DNA of 64,000 nt from Escherichia phage W143: the sequence record MZ189262.1. One strand, given 5' to 3'. Position 1 is the first letter of the stretch, and each line of letters begins with the position of its first letter. Below, in pieces: positions 4,775 to 9,991 of the stretch. Made by a program: the position numbers and the translations under genes. The notes below the pieces were generated by a model. That model had not been told where the DNA came from, made no database searches, and saw nothing but the letters and a program-made list of their open reading frames with translations.

Positions 4775-5905
4775 TTATGGATAGGTATAGATGATACCAG
4801 TTTCTAAAGCAGTTTTATGAATGATGTATCCATTACGCGATTCTTGAACATCAACTTCTGGATAGTCTTTCATCATCTTCTGAAGAGTGTAACGATGCAA
4901 GTAGTACTTACTATCTGGGTCGTCAGTTTTCCAATCTTTACCTTCTTCAGTCATTTTTTGGATTTCATCCATAACCCACCAACCGCACCAGATATAAGCT
5001 GAAGTACGATGTGGAAGAGGATGAACATAAGGTAGTTCACCTTCTGGTTCCGGAGCAGCTTTATCAGTTACCTGAACTTGACCTGTTGTTTTAACTGTTT
5101 TGCTATCATAATCAGCGGCGGTAACAGTTGCAGTAACTTCAATGGTTTGACTTCCAATAGATGATGTATCAACGGTGTATACATTAGTTGACCCTTCTAC
5201 AGGAGAAGAATCTTTCTTCCATGAATACGTAATTTGTGCTTCTTCCGGAGCATCCGTAACGTTAGCAGTAAATGTAGCCGAAGCATCTTGCTGAACATTA
5301 ATAGAAGGAGGAGTCAATGTAACCTGCGGGTTCATTGTCTTCTTATTAACTGTCAATGATACTTCATTGGAAGTAACTTCCTTTGCATCATAATCTGTCG
5401 CTGTTACTTGGGCTACGCATTTAATTCTTTTTACTCCACTTGTAGTTGGAGTATAGCTAAATGTAGAGTTAGTTTCTCCGCCAACCTGTGAATCATCTAC
5501 ATACCACTGATACGTAGCAGACGCTCCAGCTGGTTGAGAAGCTAAGGCAACAGTAAATTGAACCGGGGTTCCAATTACTCCAGCTGAAGGACTATCGGGA
5601 GTTACAGCTAAGGTAGTCGTTTGTGTCTTATTTTGAACTGTGATAGTTGTTGTCGCTTCAGCCGTTTCCGGGCCTCCTTCAGAAAGTGTATTTGTTGCAA
5701 CTACCTTAATAGTCTTTTGACCAGCAGGTCCTTTTAATACATAATCAAAAGTTGCTGCTGATCCTTCTTGGGGAGCATTATCTACGCTCCAAGCATAGGT
5801 AATAGTTCCACCTCCAGTTTCACCACTGGGTGTAGCAGTAAACTGCTTGGTTTCATCAATAACCCCTGTTGGTGTTTTAGGAGTTATATCAACTGTAAAA
5901 GCCAT
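4775..5905 (-). CDS. hoc: highly immunogenic outer capsid protein Hoc
   Basis: 376 aa, Thr/Val-rich with repeated Ig-like segments (YAWSVD..., YQWYVDD..., YSWKKD...); matches T4 Hoc in length and position. Confidence 0.9.
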   Translation of the reverse strand: MAFTVDITPKTPTGVIDETKQFTATPSGETGGGTITYAWSVDNAPQEGSAATFDYVLKGPAGQKTIKVVATNTLSEGGPETAEATTTITVQNKTQTTTLAVTPDSPSAGVIGTPVQFTVALASQPAGASATYQWYVDDSQVGGETNSTFSYTPTTSGVKRIKCVAQVTATDYDAKEVTSNEVSLTVNKKTMNPQVTLTPPSINVQQDASATFTANVTDAPEEAQITYSWKKDSSPVEGSTNVYTVDTSSIGSQTIEVTATVTAADYDSKTVKTTGQVQVTDKAAPEPEGELPYVHPLPHRTSAYIWCGWWVMDEIQKMTEEGKDWKTDDPDSKYYLHRYTLQKMMKDYPEVDVQESRNGYIIHKTALETGIIYTYP

Positions 5906-5914
5906 AAGTTATCC

Positions 5915-6595
5915 TTATTTTAATGTTACGAAAGAAGAATTGCGTGTTTCACGAATTAGAACTGATCCGTCGCGATTAATGTAATAAATTAAGCTAAATA
6001 AAGTTTGGTGTGCCGACGCATGTTCAAAACTAGTTGGGTGAGATTTCCAATCCGGAGTTTCAGCAATCCACTGATAAATCCACCAAGGAACAGTACAGAA
6101 TCCTGGATTTTTTCCAATCAGCTGAAGATTCGGACTAAAGTTTTCCGGAAGAGTAAATACAGACGGCTTTTCAGATTCAATAATCTCAGCTACAGCCTGT
6201 TCGAATTTTTCTTCAACAAAAGGAGTATCTTCAATCAAAACATCGGTATTTTCAGGAATTTTATCCGTTTCGACTACTTCAATTTTAATATCAGATTTAA
6301 CCGGAGAATCAATCAGAAGTGCTGCTTCTGGATTGACTTCTTCATCGTCATATTTTAATCCCTCTGCAGCATCAGCAGCATTGATTAAGTCTTTAATAGA
6401 TAACCCATCAGTCTCTGGCATAGGTTCACTAGCGAGCTTCTGGAGGGCTTCTTCAATATCAACAACGATATTATCAAAAGATTTATTCTTTTTGACCTTT
6501 ATACCAAACTGTTCAGCATATTCAGCTAATTTAGCTTTAGCTTCTTTATTATCATCAAGAGCCTTCAGCTCTGCAATATAATCTTTATCTATCAT
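5915..6595 (-). CDS. inh: acidic protein at T4 inh (hoc.1) position, putative prohead-protease inhibitor
   Basis: 226-aa acidic ORF immediately upstream of hoc; assignment by synteny and recalled size. Confidence 0.7.
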   Translation of the reverse strand: MIDKDYIAELKALDDNKEAKAKLAEYAEQFGIKVKKNKSFDNIVVDIEEALQKLASEPMPETDGLSIKDLINAADAAEGLKYDDEEVNPEAALLIDSPVKSDIKIEVVETDKIPENTDVLIEDTPFVEEKFEQAVAEIIESEKPSVFTLPENFSPNLQLIGKNPGFCTVPWWIYQWIAETPDWKSHPTSFEHASAHQTLFSLIYYINRDGSVLIRETRNSSFVTLK

Positions 6596-6608
6596 AATAT
6601 TTCCTCAG

Positions 6609-6616
6609 TATAAATA
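6609..6616 (+). promoter_or_regulatory. late promoter TATAAATA for uvsW
   Basis: Exact TATAAATA 30 nt upstream of uvsW ATG 6646. Confidence 0.75.
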
Positions 6617-6645
6617 TAGATATATTTATTACATGGTATTTAGAC

Positions 6646-8157
6646 ATGACTGACATTAAAGTACATTTTTATGATTTTAGTCACGTGAGAATTGATTGTG
6701 AAGAAAGTACATTTCATGAACTCCGTGATTTCTTTAGCTTTGAAGCTGATGGGTATCGTTTTAATCCGAAGTACAAATATGGCCACTGGGATGGACGAAT
6801 CCGTCTTTTAGATTATAATCGCCTTCTTCCGTTTGGTTTAGTCGGGCAAATTAAAAAGTTCTGCGATAACTTTGGCTATAAAGCTTGGATTGACCCGCAA
6901 ATTAACGAAAAAGAAGAATTATCAAGAAAAGATTTTGATGAATGGCTTTCTAAGTTAGAAATCTATTCAGGAAATAAAAGAATTGAACCGCACTGGTATC
7001 AAAAAGATGCAGTGTTCGAAGGATTAGTTAATCGTCGTAGAATTCTTAATCTTCCAACATCCGCAGGTAAATCTTTAATTCAAGCTTTGCTTGCACGTTA
7101 TTATTTGGAAAATTATGAAGGTAAAATTCTTATCATTGTTCCAACAACTGCTTTAACAACTCAGATGGCTGATGACTTTGTTGATTATCGTTTATTCAGT
7201 CATGCAATGATAAAGAAAATTGGCGGCGGAGCATCAAAAGATGATAAATATAAAAATGATGCACCGGTAATTGTTGGTACATGGCAAACTGTAGTAAAAC
7301 AACCAAAAGAATGGTTCTCACAGTTTGGAATGATGATGAATGATGAATGCCATCTTGCTACAGGAAAAAGTATTTCATCTATCATATCAGGTTTAAATAA
7401 CTGCATGTTTAAATTTGGTCTATCGGGTTCATTACGTGATGGCAAAGCTAATATCATGCAGTATGTTGGAATGTTTGGTGAAATATTTAAGCCGGTAACG
7501 ACTTCTAAATTAATGGAAGATGGACAAGTAACTGAGTTAAAAATTAATAGTATTTTTCTTCGCTATCCCGATGAGTTCACTACTAAATTAAAGGGAAAAA
7601 CTTACCAAGAAGAAATAAAAATTATTACTGGGCTCAGTAAAAGAAATAAATGGATCGCTAAATTAGCTATTAAACTTGCGCAAAAAGATGAAAACGCTTT
7701 TGTCATGTTTAAGCATGTATCACATGGTAAAGCTATTTTCGATTTAATTAAAAATGAATACGATAAAGTTTATTACGTATCAGGGGAAGTTGATACCGAA
7801 ACACGCAACGTAATGAAAACCCTAGCTGAAAACGGTAAAGGAATAATTATAGTAGCTAGTTATGGTGTATTTTCTACCGGTATTTCAGTTAAAAATCTGC
7901 ATCACGTTGTTTTAGCGCACGGTGTTAAATCTAAAATTATTGTATTGCAAACAATAGGTCGCGTATTACGTAAGCATGGTTCTAAAACAATCGCAACGGT
8001 CTGGGACCTCATAGATGACGCGGGCGTAGTTTCTAAATCAAAAACATCTTCTAAAAAATACTCGCATTTAAACTATCTTTTAAAACATGGACTTGATCGT
8101 ATTCAGCGTTATGCTGATGAGAAGTTTAATTATGTGATGAAAGAGGTTAAACTTTGA
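6646..8157 (+). CDS. uvsW: UvsW DNA helicase (SF2)
   Basis: 503 aa; Walker A PTSAGKS, DExH box NDECH; matches T4 UvsW. Confidence 0.95.
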   Translation: MTDIKVHFYDFSHVRIDCEESTFHELRDFFSFEADGYRFNPKYKYGHWDGRIRLLDYNRLLPFGLVGQIKKFCDNFGYKAWIDPQINEKEELSRKDFDEWLSKLEIYSGNKRIEPHWYQKDAVFEGLVNRRRILNLPTSAGKSLIQALLARYYLENYEGKILIIVPTTALTTQMADDFVDYRLFSHAMIKKIGGGASKDDKYKNDAPVIVGTWQTVVKQPKEWFSQFGMMMNDECHLATGKSISSIISGLNNCMFKFGLSGSLRDGKANIMQYVGMFGEIFKPVTTSKLMEDGQVTELKINSIFLRYPDEFTTKLKGKTYQEEIKIITGLSKRNKWIAKLAIKLAQKDENAFVMFKHVSHGKAIFDLIKNEYDKVYYVSGEVDTETRNVMKTLAENGKGIIIVASYGVFSTGISVKNLHHVVLAHGVKSKIIVLQTIGRVLRKHGSKTIATVWDLIDDAGVVSKSKTSSKKYSHLNYLLKHGLDRIQRYADEKFNYVMKEVKL

Positions 8158-8846
8158 ATTATAAATTAATATACGATAATTTAATTAATAGAGCCCAGAA
8201 TCGGGCTCGCCTTAATGGATACACTGAAACTCATCATATAATTCCTAGATGTATGGGCGGTACAGATGATAAGTGTAATTTGGTAGAACTAACAGCTGAA
8301 GAGCATTTTATAGCTCATAAACTTTTAGCTAAAATTCATCCAAACCATTACGGTATAATTAAAGCCGTTATATGTATGGGAATGAATTCAAATACTCATG
8401 AAAGACACGTTAATAAATCTTACGCCTGGGAACGTCGTAAAATGGCAAAACTTCAATCAGGTGAAGGTAATCCATTTTACGGAAAACACCATACGGAAGA
8501 ACATAAACAATATATGTCAAAACTCATGAAAAATCGTCCAATTACGTGGGGAAGTAAAATTAGTAAAACTAAAAGAATGAACCCAACAAAATGGACTGAA
8601 GAAGCTAAAAGATTGCATTCTATCAATCAATCAGGTAAAAATAATGGCATGTATGGAAGGAAACATTCCGCTAAATCTATTCAGAAAATTAAAGATAACA
8701 TGCCAGATAATTCAGGAGCTAATAACCCAGCTGCTAAACCTATAGAAGTAAATGGTGTTAAGTATAAATGCATGAAAGATGCTTCTAAAGCTACTGGATT
8801 ATCAATGTACAAACTAAGAATACTTAGAAAAACAGTTAATTTATAA
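8154..8846 (+). CDS. HNH homing endonuclease (Mob-like), free-standing
   Basis: 230 aa; HNH core HHIIPRCMGGTDDKCNLVELTAEEHFIAH; repeated NUMOD-like modules (NPFYGKHHTEEHKQYM, NNGMYGRKHSAKSIQ, GANNPAAKPIEVNGVKYKCMKDASKATGLS); TTG start overlaps uvsW TGA (TTGA); SD AGAGG 7 nt upstream. Confidence 0.85.
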   Translation: MNYKLIYDNLINRAQNRARLNGYTETHHIIPRCMGGTDDKCNLVELTAEEHFIAHKLLAKIHPNHYGIIKAVICMGMNSNTHERHVNKSYAWERRKMAKLQSGEGNPFYGKHHTEEHKQYMSKLMKNRPITWGSKISKTKRMNPTKWTEEAKRLHSINQSGKNNGMYGRKHSAKSIQKIKDNMPDNSGANNPAAKPIEVNGVKYKCMKDASKATGLSMYKLRILRKTVNL

Positions 8847-8861
8847 GGGCTTCGGCCCTTT
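8846..8861 (+). other. GC stem-loop (AAGGGC-TTCG-GCCCTT) between HNH gene and uvsW.1 RBS
   Basis: Perfect 6-bp stem with TTCG tetraloop directly after the HNH stop codon, followed by GGAG SD of uvsW.1. Confidence 0.6.
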
Positions 8862-8871
8862 GGAGAAAAAG

Positions 8872-9102
8872 ATGTTACTAGAATTTAAACAATTTCTTTA
8901 TGAAGCTTCTATTGATGAATTTATGGGTAAAATTGCCTCTTGCCAAACATTAGAAGGTCTAGAAGAACTTGAAGCTTATTATAAGAAAAGAGTTAAAGAA
9001 ACTGAATTAAAAGATACTGATGACATCTCAGTTAGAGATGCTTTGGCAGGAAAAAGAGCTGAATTAGAAGATTCAGACGATGAAGTAGAAGAAAGCTTTT
9101 AA
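8872..9102 (+). CDS. uvsW.1: UvsW.1
   Basis: 76 aa from ATG 8872 (MLLEFKQFLYEASIDEF...) with GGAG 6 nt upstream; ORF-track start at 8860 is TTG and lacks an RBS. Confidence 0.85.
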   Translation: MLLEFKQFLYEASIDEFMGKIASCQTLEGLEELEAYYKKRVKETELKDTDDISVRDALAGKRAELEDSDDEVEESF

Positions 9103-9157
9103 ATTAAAAAAGGCCCAACCAAAAAGGAAGGGCCAAAACTATAGACTAAAGGTCACA

Positions 9158-9325
9158 CTATAGCAAAAGTTGTGTTTCATTTAATTGTTCTTCCGAACTT
9201 TCTGAAACTGGTAGTTCTTTAATGTAATTATAGCAAGGCCCAGGATGTACAGGACCTTTGTCTGTTTCAACAACCAATGCAGAATCGATTGGAGTTTTAC
9301 AGACAACACAAATCTTATCTGACAT
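9158..9325 (-). CDS. uvsY.-2: small Cys-containing protein (T4 uvsY.-2 position), 55 aa
   Basis: Hand-translated: MSDKICVVCKTPIDSALVVETDKGPVHPGPCYNYIKELPVSESSEEQLNETQLLL; GAGGAGA SD 5 nt upstream; below the 60-aa ORF-track cutoff. Confidence 0.6.
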   Translation of the reverse strand: MSDKICVVCKTPIDSALVVETDKGPVHPGPCYNYIKELPVSESSEEQLNETQLLL

Positions 9326-9353
9326 GATTGTCTCCTCTAAATTATATATCTAT

Positions 9354-9578
9354 TTATATAACTCTCATATGCATATCAATGCCCATATCTTTAGAATAAA
9401 AATATTCATCAAGATATCCGGCAAATTTTCCTTTAATATAAAGGACATCTTCACCGCATGGATGGTCGGCCAGGATACGAATATCCTGACGCTTGAGATT
9501 ATACTTTTTCATTAAGAATTGAATTTCCGTTTCGAATTCTTCTTCATAATTAAAAGCATCATCAATGCTATATTTCAT
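9354..9578 (-). CDS. uvsY.-1: hypothetical protein (T4 uvsY.-1 position)
   Basis: 74-aa ORF; its start overlaps the uvsY stop (ATGA-type coupling). Confidence 0.7.
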   Translation of the reverse strand: MKYSIDDAFNYEEEFETEIQFLMKKYNLKRQDIRILADHPCGEDVLYIKGKFAGYLDEYFYSKDMGIDMHMRVI

Positions 9579-9991
9579 TATTTTCCAGCCTCAAATGCTC
9601 GCATGTCTTGAATATGCTTAATAGCAAATCCGCGTGATTTAATAGCATCAAGAGCTCCGCTACAGAAATCTAATAAAATTCCCCAGTATTGCAATGAAGT
9701 ATCGACTTTTAAAACGTCCTTATCAGCTGATAGAACTGTCTTCATTTCTGATTTCTCATAACGGTCCATACTAAATTCATCACCATCTCCTCGTCCCGAG
9801 TAGTAGTCTAATTTAGCTTTAAGAGCAACTTTTTTCTGCGCTTCAATTCTAAGCATTTCCTTTTTAATACTTGAATGCTTATTAAGCCATTTACTATATA
9901 ACATCACATTATTAGCTGCTTCATACTGTAATTTAGTCGAATCTATAAACACATCTTTCTTCAATTCTTCTTGAAGATCTTCTAATTTCAT
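9578..9991 (-). CDS. uvsY: UvsY recombination mediator
   Basis: 137 aa, MKLEDLQEELKKDVFIDSTKLQYEAANN...; matches T4 UvsY. Confidence 0.95.
   Translation of the reverse strand: MKLEDLQEELKKDVFIDSTKLQYEAANNVMLYSKWLNKHSSIKKEMLRIEAQKKVALKAKLDYYSGRGDGDEFSMDRYEKSEMKTVLSADKDVLKVDTSLQYWGILLDFCSGALDAIKSRGFAIKHIQDMRAFEAGK

Follow-up and report, generated by a model that had tools for sequence, protein, structure and literature searches.

What is the open reading frame (ORF) at the junction of uvsW and uvsW.1 in Escherichia phage W143, how is it fitted between its neighbours, and does it behave as a mobile gene? We addressed this in a window of 64,000 nucleotides, the whole stretch of DNA analysed (sequence record MZ189262.1), and collect the features of the locus in Table 1. 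A preliminary description had read the ORF as a free-standing homing endonuclease gene at a site that T4 leaves unused, a reading that its homology to Mob proteins, its patchy presence among related phages and a linked uvsW tract all uphold. The gene is ordinary rather than new, because the same gene at the same junction is already annotated as 'homing endonuclease' in T6 and about 30–35 other T4-like phages.

Table 1. Positions of the features at the uvsW/uvsW.1 junction (numbering of the window)
Feature	Position	Strand	Remarks
T4-type late promoter consensus TATAAATA	6609–6616	+	Exact match in the 50-bp inh–uvsW spacer
uvsW helicase gene	6646–8157	+	503 aa; ends in a replacement tail, ...MKEVKL-stop
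Diverged uvsW 3' tract, about 115 nt	8028–8142	+	Left of the insert; linked to the endonuclease gene
Left uvsW tail copy ATGAAAGAGGTTAAACTTTGA (MKEVKL-stop)	8137–8157	+	Contains the endonuclease Shine-Dalgarno sequence and the TTGA overlap
Insert, 689 nt	8143–8831	+	From alignment with T4/T2-type empty sites
Predicted Mob-type HNH homing endonuclease ORF	8154–8846	+	230 aa; TTG start
HNH (beta-beta-alpha-metal) catalytic core	8220–8318	+	Residues 23–55: H27, H28, N42, H51, H55
Two NUMOD3 DNA-binding motifs	8433–8702	+	About residues 94–125 and 157–183, with a weaker helical linker between
Probable I-TevI-like C-terminal helix-turn-helix	8730–8807	+	Residues 193–218
Right uvsW tail copy AGAAAAACAGTTAATTTATAA (RKTVNL-stop)	8826–8846	+	C-terminus and stop of the endonuclease
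GGGC-UUCG-GCCC hairpin GGGCTTCGGCCC	8847–8858	+	Native uvsW/uvsW.1 spacer element; folds when modelled
uvsW.1	8872–9102	+	76 aa; Shine-Dalgarno GGAG at 8862–8865; unchanged by the insertion

Database comparisons support the assignment of the product to the T4 Mob family of free-standing HNH proteins, to whose members it is related through the N-terminal nuclease domain. With blastp, the 230-aa protein aligned from residue 1 with T4 MobE (52% identity over 106 aa, E 4e-32), MobD (59% over 75 aa, E 1e-25), MobB (44%, E 1e-26) and MobC (43%, E 6e-19), and PHROG 655, 'homing endonuclease', matches the ORF at 4e-61. The canonical HNH core named in the preliminary description is confirmed, with the catalytic His and Asn residues of a conserved HH...N...H motif retained: in an alignment of 47 homologous sequences, H28, N42, H51 and H55 do not vary, while H27 shows more than 90% conservation. 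This motif aligns with those of group II intron maturase HNH and Cas8-HNH domains, and at the same place the AlphaFold2 model (mean pLDDT 86.8) predicts strands 25–28 and 43–46 and a helix at 48–61. The Pfam HNH profile (PF01844) scores 16.7 bits against a gathering score of 21.4 (E 0.008) and so stays below threshold; most Mob-like homologues likewise lack a precomputed PF01844 match.

The C-terminal half does hold DNA-binding modules, as had been proposed, but in place of three NUMOD-like repeats it has two NUMOD3 motifs followed by a probable I-TevI-like helix-turn-helix. NUMOD3 (PF07460) is found in two stretches at 1.3e-13 (51 bits, cutoff 20.4). The Pfam match to the I-TevI DNA-binding domain is weak (PF20987, E 0.03, 14.7 bits against a cutoff of 27); phmmer finds the PDB entry 1i3j over residues 157–216 (E 0.006), and Foldseek, which with the model as query retrieves the I-TevI DNA-binding domain and Cas8-HNH, places 1i3j at top rank (probability 0.99, E 0.059). 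Residues 157–216 align with the minor-groove helix and helix-turn-helix of that domain (1i3j, 1t2t). I-TevI itself, however, is intron-encoded and has a GIY-YIG catalytic domain, whereas here the module is joined to an HNH domain in a free-standing gene.

With an in-frame TAA at 8148–8150, the endonuclease cannot start upstream of TTG 8154; the next in-frame ATG is codon 34, and starting there would cost half the HNH motif. This TTG (8154–8156) overlaps the uvsW stop TGA (8155–8157) as TTGA, and AAAGAGG at 8140–8146 supplies a Shine-Dalgarno GAGG (8143–8146) at a spacing of 7 nt. From residue 1 onward the protein aligns with the N-terminus 'MNY..IY.NLI' of T4 MobB, MobC, MobD and MobE. The earlier proposal that TTG 8154 is the only plausible start, overlapping the uvsW stop and with a Shine-Dalgarno sequence 7 nt upstream, is thus borne out by the upstream TAA and the GAGG spacing. 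A fusion of UvsW to the endonuclease by −1 frameshifting was rejected, since the TAA stands two codons before the TTG and 8146–8157 contains no slippery heptamer of the form X XXY YYZ.

The gene is not, as first described, simply wedged between uvsW and uvsW.1. When the interval is aligned across T-even genomes, as the preliminary description had suggested, empty sites of the T4/T2 type delimit an insert whose ends can be placed only to within about 3 nt, AAA being shared. It lies inside the end of the uvsW coding sequence, four codons short of the original stop, and leaves the uvsW tail duplicated. From ATGAAA to the stop, the interval measures 710 nt in the window and 21 nt in T2 and LH2. 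The uvsW genes of T4, T2 and LH2 end in ...MKTVNL-stop, unlike that of the window, and positions 8829–8846 are identical (18/18) to the tail and stop of these three phages. Judged by this comparison, the left tail copy is the one that came in with the insert. The alignment shows the predicted endonuclease ORF continuing without a frame change into the original tail of uvsW (KTVNL-stop) and using the original stop, and shows the insert giving uvsW a new tail, EVKL-stop, which carries the Shine-Dalgarno sequence and TTG start of the endonuclease.

Both uvsW and uvsW.1 are complete ORFs in the window, the ribosome-binding site of uvsW.1 is left as it was, and identity to T4 is 95–100% from 8854 onward. 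This duplicated-tail anatomy explains why annotators have recorded 'uvsW-A / endonuclease / uvsW-B'. The GC hairpin reported 3' of the endonuclease stop is present, but it is native to the junction rather than a feature of the endonuclease gene: it also occurs in phages without the gene (T2, LH2, SF4 and others) and is therefore not part of the insert.

The gene is found at this junction in 48 phage records at 96–99.7% nucleotide identity, or about 10% of the roughly 500 Tequatrovirus records with the junction; carriers include T6, Yersinia phage PST, ACG-C40, HY03 and UFV-AREG1. It is free-standing, oriented as its neighbours and patchy among related phages. The window allele belongs to the Killian/ZN18/SH-1 group and differs by 5 aa from the T6/PST group. 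A scan of IMG/VR returned only two close copies, both from isolates (ZN18 and G8), the other matches being distant paralogues. The supposition that T4 reference genomes lack the gene at this place holds for T4 itself and fails for T6, PST, ACG-C40 and HY03, which carry it at the same junction. In agreement with the preliminary description, T4 carries segE at the inh–uvsW junction and no gene at the uvsW–uvsW.1 junction (Table 1 of PMC2988022), whereas in the window segE is absent and inh and uvsW are 50 bp apart.

The closest counterparts, in T6 (BBF63601.1, AP018814) and PST (AGR46130.1, labelled 'mobD'/'MobE'), likewise encode 230 aa from a TTG overlapping the uvsW stop at the same position; both phages also carry segE, which the window lacks, and nothing essential differs otherwise. 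All four combinations of presence and absence of segE and the endonuclease gene occur in phages. T4 SegE is, like the product described here, encoded by a free-standing endonuclease gene flanking uvsW, and its target is uvsW (PMC2988022), but it belongs to the GIY-YIG family and its gene lies at the uvsW 5' end. A diverged uvsW tract at 6635–6800 goes with the presence or absence of segE, and a 3-nt indel separates the uvsW 5' end from that of segE-carrying phages; the ungapped 5'-end comparison extends to segE-less phages only, with T4 covered by the MAFFT profile.

The label in the PST record suggests an ortholog of T4 mobD, which we rejected because both the locus and the C-terminal half differ: mobD is flanked by nrdC.11 and mobD.1, and similarity is limited to the first 75 of its 259 aa, the C-terminal half being unrelated. 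T4 MobE shares the MNY N-terminus and is also free-standing, promoter-less and oriented as its neighbours. At 141 aa, however, it lacks the NUMOD3 and helix-turn-helix modules, similarity stops at about residue 105, and its insertion site and presumably its target are different; mobE lies between nrdA and nrdB and is listed as active (PMC2988022, Table 1).

Beyond Tequatrovirus, orthologs of 55–70% identity occupy the uvsW/uvsW.1 junction in Jiaodavirus, Dhakavirus, Gaprivervirus and Gualtarvirus, which brings the total to five genera; the reading frame and the start/stop overlap are conserved, with an ATG start in two. The tail duplication is seen in three genera (Tequatrovirus, Dhakavirus and Gaprivervirus); the copies are a perfect 18-nt repeat in Gaprivervirus TH40, against 11/18 identical positions in phages of the window type. 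The uvsW tails of Dhakavirus carriers, MKEVQI-stop in PSD2002 and MKEVQL-stop in Bp7, are of the same style as that of the window. In PSD2002 the endonuclease tail equals the uvsW tail of the Dhakavirus phages JS98 and PSD9 at 21/21 nt; the non-carrier tail of this genus, MKQVDL-stop, had been predicted beforehand and matches that endonuclease tail at 21/21 nt. The Bp7-type HNH endonuclease (AEN93937.1) shares the junction, the MKEVQL-stop tail, the TTGA overlap and the first 9 residues with the window gene, but has 260 aa, with 32% identity over the N-terminal 140 aa or so only; its C-terminal region differs, and its gene does not end in a copy of the uvsW tail.

Carriers also differ from non-carriers within uvsW itself, on one side of the insert. 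The tract is 57–85% identical to T4, against 92–100% on both flanks in the MAFFT profile, and a comparison of 5 carriers with 5 non-carriers shows its differences to be fixed and reveals no fixed difference right of the insert. Exactly 48 records match the tract at 95% identity or more, which is also the number of gene carriers. The tract comprises a recoded patch at 8028–8064, where UvsW reads 'VSKSKTSSKKYS' instead of 'KPKSANTKKKYV', together with synonymous changes that are fixed at 8070, 8088, 8109, 8112, 8115, 8124, 8133 and 8136. Such a left-only diverged tract was measured in two genera, Tequatrovirus and Dhakavirus: PSD2002 and PSD9 are 98–100% identical except in the last 250 nt or so of uvsW (66–80%), with 100% identity from the start of the right tail copy.

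Positions 8124, 8133 and 8136 are changed in the Jiaodavirus carrier Roth16 as well. In the whole of uvsW, carriers of two genera agree against non-carriers at four sites, three of which lie at 8121–8133, and 8136 is also changed in both. The changes that carriers of different genera have in common cluster no more than 35 nt from the insertion point. The recoded patch, by contrast, cannot be a universal immunity determinant, because the ancestral patch persists in Jiaodavirus and Gaprivervirus carriers, and at least one Tequatrovirus without the gene, LH2, has the recoded one. No convincing MotA box or late promoter was seen in the patch on inspection by eye. A search for the donor genus of the Tequatrovirus left tract did not find it, the best matches outside carriers being about 80% identical. 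The linked tract could come from a single historical introgression followed by tight linkage rather than from ongoing homing.

From the role of such promoters in T4 biology, the TATAAATA at 6609 is the likely source of a uvsW–endonuclease–uvsW.1 transcript. There is no further TATAAATA on the + strand between 6617 and 9350, so the endonuclease gene lacks a late promoter of its own, and in a search for its own promoter sigma-70-like matches appeared only at chance rate. Free-standing endonuclease genes of T4 are commonly promoter-less cassettes with middle or late expression (PMC2988022). RNA structure over the ribosome-binding site is not notable (z-score −0.76), and 6400–9600 contains no Rfam match and hence no intron or known RNA element.

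Taken at sequence level, these observations make it probable that the gene is a free-standing Mob (HNH) homing cassette, integrated in the end of uvsW, expressed late and homing on gene-free uvsW alleles. It would be transcribed late together with uvsW, without a promoter of its own, and its translation, by termination-reinitiation at UUGA, would be weak. During mixed infection the enzyme would nick or cut the gene-free uvsW allele near its end, the comparative patterns pointing to the conserved ...GATGAAAAATTTAAYTACGTAATGAAAAC... just upstream of the insertion point as the likely target. Recombinational repair would then transfer the cassette along with the uvsW 3' end next to it, using the tail copy on the right as right homology arm, and the left-tract substitutions, along with the splitting of the site by the insert, may shield carrier genomes from self-cleavage. 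Such transfer may bias the inheritance of uvsW alleles, the marker exclusion proposed in the preliminary description. The fixed site in five genera and the one-sided foreign tract in two are indirect signatures of homing by the predicted endonuclease.

Selection on the protein bears on whether the gene is still mobile. Between the two allele groups dN/dS is about 0.05 (dS about 0.16, dN about 0.009), which indicates a functional protein under strong purifying selection. Values of this kind imply long-term selection, such as post-fixation decay would not give, and the gene lies inside a recombination/repair cluster, translationally chained to uvsW and uvsW.1. Both points would suit a nuclease domesticated or re-purposed in Tequatrovirus, no longer mobile and kept for the benefit of the phage. 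We nevertheless consider domestication unlikely, and equally so a benefit such as cutting competing phage or host DNA or taking part in recombination or repair beside UvsW and UvsW.1. With its presence in about a tenth of Tequatrovirus records and in all segE combinations, the gene is dispensable and patchy like mobile genes, the one-sided foreign flank seen in two genera is what transfer by repair leaves behind, and recurrent homing among phage populations maintains selection too.

Still less probable is an active endonuclease with its target elsewhere, in uvsW.1, further off or at many sites, which would make the uvsW tract hitch-hiking donor sequence. T4 free-standing endonucleases do often cut far from their insertion sites, and for mobB, mobC and mobD no target is known (PMC2988022); the recoded patch, moreover, does not follow the gene in all genera. 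Yet no carrier-specific differences lie right of the insert in Tequatrovirus or Dhakavirus, a target in uvsW.1 would leave carriers open to their own enzyme, and the cross-genus carrier changes cluster close to the insertion point, on the uvsW side. That the ORF is silent or inactive, its TTG unused, no protein made and its conservation owed only to recent spread, is very improbable: TTG is a weak, rare start and the Pfam HNH score is sub-threshold, but the ORF is intact and the TTG kept in 7/7 alleles examined despite 25 substitutions (20 of them synonymous), frame and start/stop overlap persist in the orthologs of five genera, two of which use ATG, and the catalytic residues are invariant.

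Within the homing reading, we tentatively suggest, at somewhat less than even odds, that the endonucleases of this lineage form a self-contained cassette, 'translationally seamless', which is specialised for the uvsW/uvsW.1 junction and able to pass between genera. It would bring its own uvsW 3' end, serving as ribosome-binding site and immunity, while the resident tail copy would act as right homology arm and keep the translation chain; divergence between the tail copies would guard the insert against precise deletion. In the mobA/gene 60 bypass cassette of Bonocora et al. 2011 (PNAS 108:16351), a Mob gene reportedly travels with an adjacent piece of host gene. The window endonuclease likewise co-travels with adjacent host-gene sequence, although here the piece is an alternative uvsW 3' end with a duplicated tail and in the mobA cassette a translational bypass element. 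Our literature search found no account of such a seamless-cassette architecture for T-even endonuclease genes and no description of an endonuclease at uvsW/uvsW.1, although the gene may still be published elsewhere; nor did it find a report that this protein or an ortholog of it has nuclease activity, cuts at a given site or homes.

The locus thus offers a Mob family member with a clear predicted target, the last 60 bp or so of T2/T4-type uvsW, for which the natural donors and recipients of the predicted homing are standard laboratory phages, T6 versus T2 or T4. The two ends of uvsW are independent insertion sites for endonuclease genes, segE and the gene described here, and with all four combinations present in nature uvsW is a compact system for the study of co-conversion and marker exclusion. 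The duplicated tail, finally, illustrates a way for an endonuclease gene to invade a pair of translationally coupled genes without much cost to the host.

Alignment of the uvsW-uvsW.1 interval across T-even phages, a comparison put forward in the preliminary description, reveals an empty site in T2, Escherichia phage LH2 (OQ378934) and other phages without the endonuclease gene (non-carriers), whereas T6 and PST carry it. In non-carriers, uvsW ends in ATGAAAACAGTTAATTTATAA (MKTVNL-stop), followed by the hairpin GGGCTTCGGCCC and then the uvsW.1 ribosome-binding site. The window has a uvsW ending in ATGAAAGAGGTTAAACTTTGA (MKEVKL-stop) and an endonuclease ORF ending in AGAAAAACAGTTAATTTATAA (RKTVNL-stop) before an identical hairpin, which therefore places an insert of 689 nt at about 8143-8831, following the AAA codon, four codons short of the original uvsW stop. 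The insert brings a replacement uvsW tail, holding the GAGG and the TTGA overlap, while the old uvsW tail is read by the endonuclease, with its frame unchanged and its stop still in use. The gene does lie between uvsW and uvsW.1 but is not simply wedged there, and the hairpin, although correctly located between the endonuclease stop and the uvsW.1 ribosome-binding site, is not insert-derived, since non-carriers have it too; it is a native element of the junction. The T4 RefSeq record (NC_000866) still annotates a fused 587-aa uvsW: at 5180-5200 (window 8844-8848) it reads ...TTAATAAGCTTCGGCCC, whereas every other phage compared has TTATAAGGGCTTCGGCCC. This is a documented sequencing error within the GC hairpin (PMC1524935, PMC6486255); it joins uvsW to uvsW.1 and makes naive T4 comparisons misleading at exactly this junction.

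The insert comes with a linked stretch of uvsW. The window is 92-100% identical to T4 across the region except at 6635-6800 and 7985-8142; identity falls to 57% in the latter and is 95-100% right of the insert. When five carriers were compared with five non-carriers, fixed differences lay only left of the insert (see the table). The tract 7990-8153 is found at no less than 95% identity in exactly 48 records and at 90-95% in four further ones, among them LH2, a Tequatrovirus lacking the endonuclease gene, which at 2500-2700 has the recoded patch VVSKSKTSSKKYS followed by a distal end and tail of T4 type, the crossover falling somewhere from 8064 to 8070 in window coordinates. LH2 may have arisen by recombination, or it may represent a candidate empty allele that resists cleavage.

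Carrier-linked uvsW features, blastp matches to T4 Mob proteins and orthologs at the junction
Feature	Window position	Identity	Aligned	E value	Remark
Recoded patch	8028-8064				Fixed in carriers; UvsW VSKSKTSSKKYS replaces KPKSANTKKKYV
Fixed synonymous changes	8070, 8088, 8109, 8112, 8115, 8124, 8133, 8136				Carriers versus non-carriers
Replacement uvsW tail					Fixed in five carriers versus five non-carriers
T4 MobE		52%	106 aa	4e-32	From residue 1
T4 MobD		59%	75 aa	1e-25	From residue 1
T4 MobB		44%	136 aa	1e-26	From residue 1
T4 MobC		43%	107 aa	6e-19	From residue 1
Jiaodavirus, phage Roth16					ATG start
Dhakavirus, phage PSD2002					TTG start
Gaprivervirus, phage TH40					TTG start
Gualtarvirus, Morganella phage Rgz1					ATG start

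At the 5' end of uvsW (6635-6800), divergence from T4 is associated with whether a phage has segE: the first roughly 150 nt of window uvsW are 72-75% identical to T4 versus 98-100% to T2, SF4 and Killian, which likewise lack segE. As the preliminary description stated, T4 carries segE in its inh-uvsW interval and has an empty uvsW-uvsW.1 junction (T4 record; PMC2988022 Table 1), and the window (6596-6800) has no segE, only a 50-bp inh-uvsW spacer with a late-promoter consensus, TATAAATA, at 6609-6616. Each end of uvsW therefore has a diverged, endonuclease-linked tract, and each of the four possible segE/Mob-like combinations is represented (T4, +/-; T6 and PST, +/+; window and Killian, -/+; T2 and SF4, -/-).

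The endonuclease gene is not new: annotations of it exist for T6 and many further phages, and its family is well known. A 1.8-kb query over the locus aligns over its full length with 48 phage records (97-99%), and the gene alone is full-length at 96-99.7% identity in 48 records, about 35 distinct phages, including Yersinia phage PST, ACG-C40, HY03 and UFV-AREG1 besides T6; most are annotated 'homing endonuclease' with identical 693-nt coordinates overlapping the uvsW stop. Roughly 10% of the approximately 500 Tequatrovirus records with the junction have the gene, and our literature search found no published description or test of a uvsW-junction endonuclease. Two allele groups (window/Killian/ZN18 versus T6/PST/SF2/G8) differ at about 20 synonymous and 4-5 non-synonymous sites (dS about 0.16, dN about 0.009, dN/dS about 0.05), and all seven alleles keep the TTG and an intact frame.

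PHROG 655 ('homing endonuclease') matches the protein at 4e-61, and the suggested comparison with T4 Mob proteins returns MobE, MobD, MobB and MobC. Similarity ends at about residue 105-130, which makes the endonuclease a Mob paralog and rules out a mobD ortholog, as PST's label mobD/MobE would have it. Its catalytic HNH residues are retained: a 47-sequence alignment shows no variation at H28, N42, H51 or H55 and very little at H27, and an AlphaFold2 model (mean pLDDT 86.8) has two strands and a helix around them. The HNH core stands, with a sub-threshold Pfam match (16.7 versus 21.4 bits), but in place of three C-terminal NUMOD-like repeats Pfam finds two NUMOD3 stretches (51 bits) and a weak I-TevI DNA-binding match.

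The ORF listing places the endonuclease at 8154..8846 (+), 230 aa, with a TTG start overlapping the uvsW stop as T-TGA (8154-8157). An in-frame TAA at 8148-8150 rules out any earlier start, initiation at the following in-frame ATG (codon 34) would interrupt the HNH motif, and the Mob alignments, which begin at residue 1 on a common 'MNY..IY.NLI' N-terminus, validate the TTG independently. The GAGG of AAAGAGG (8140-8146) lies 7 nt upstream; the start, the stop overlap and this spacing are as first proposed. Codons 13-18 contain a perfect inverted repeat of 7 bp (GAGCCCA-GAAT-CGGGCTC, 8191-8208), 37 nt past the TTG; a terminator-like scan picked it up on the minus strand, and it may have arisen by chance from the RAQNRAR codons or may modulate translation. 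The listing calls uvsW.1 at TTG 8860; T2, PST and others annotate ATG 8872, which is preceded by GGAG (8862-8865) and gives a 76-aa UvsW.1.

The only nearby late-promoter consensus is that upstream of uvsW (6609-6616), with none inside uvsW or the endonuclease gene, no notable RNA structure over the endonuclease start and no Rfam match in the region. We infer from this that the gene is transcribed late together with uvsW and that its translation starts weakly, in coupled fashion, at UUGA, which agrees with the account of T4 free-standing endonuclease genes as lacking promoters of their own and being expressed late (PMC2988022). Between the converging uvsW.1 and uvsY.-2, at 9103-9140, lies a GC-rich inverted repeat, AAAAAAGGCCCAACCAAAAAGGAAGGGCCAAAAC, that corresponds to a conserved bidirectional terminator downstream of uvsW.1 in T4-like phages (PMC1524935).

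Orthologs with 55-70% identity occupy the same junction in four other genera, overlapping the uvsW stop by 4 nt. The Tequatrovirus pattern predicts that the endonuclease tail equals the resident uvsW tail, and this held in Dhakavirus: uvsW of the non-carriers JS98 and PSD9 ends in ATGAAACAGGTGGATTTATGA (MKQVDL-stop), the exact 3' end of the PSD2002 endonuclease, and PSD2002 uvsW ends in MKEVQI-stop. Along uvsW, PSD2002 matches PSD9 at 98-100%, except at 66-80% over the last 250 nt or so, and the match is 100% from the right tail copy (the original tail ending the endonuclease) onward; the two copies in TH40 match perfectly as a direct repeat of 18 nt. In a four-way comparison (carrier and non-carrier from each of Tequatrovirus and Jiaodavirus), the carriers agree against both non-carriers at four sites in all of uvsW, three of which fall at 8121-8133, immediately ahead of the point of insertion. 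Some Dhakavirus phages, namely Bp7 (HQ829472, 1002-1784), UGJNEcP3 and UGJNEcP4, have a different 260-aa HNH endonuclease at this junction, 32% identical in its N-terminal part only, which shares the TTGA overlap and a similar replacement tail (MKEVQL-stop) but whose 3' end has no uvsW-tail copy.

From these patterns we infer that, in mixed infection, the enzyme would cut or nick uvsW close to its 3' end in alleles lacking the gene, and repair from a carrier genome would copy the cassette with the adjacent uvsW 3' end, the right crossover falling within the tail copy; carriers would be protected by the left-tract substitutions and by the insert splitting the site. The recoded patch is rejected as a universal protective change, since carriers in Jiaodavirus and Gaprivervirus lack it and the non-carrier LH2 has it. 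The gene is real and its earlier interpretation essentially correct; what is added here is a corrected anatomy, a one-sided linked tract, the occurrence of this lineage in five genera at a single junction, and a predicted target that is concrete.
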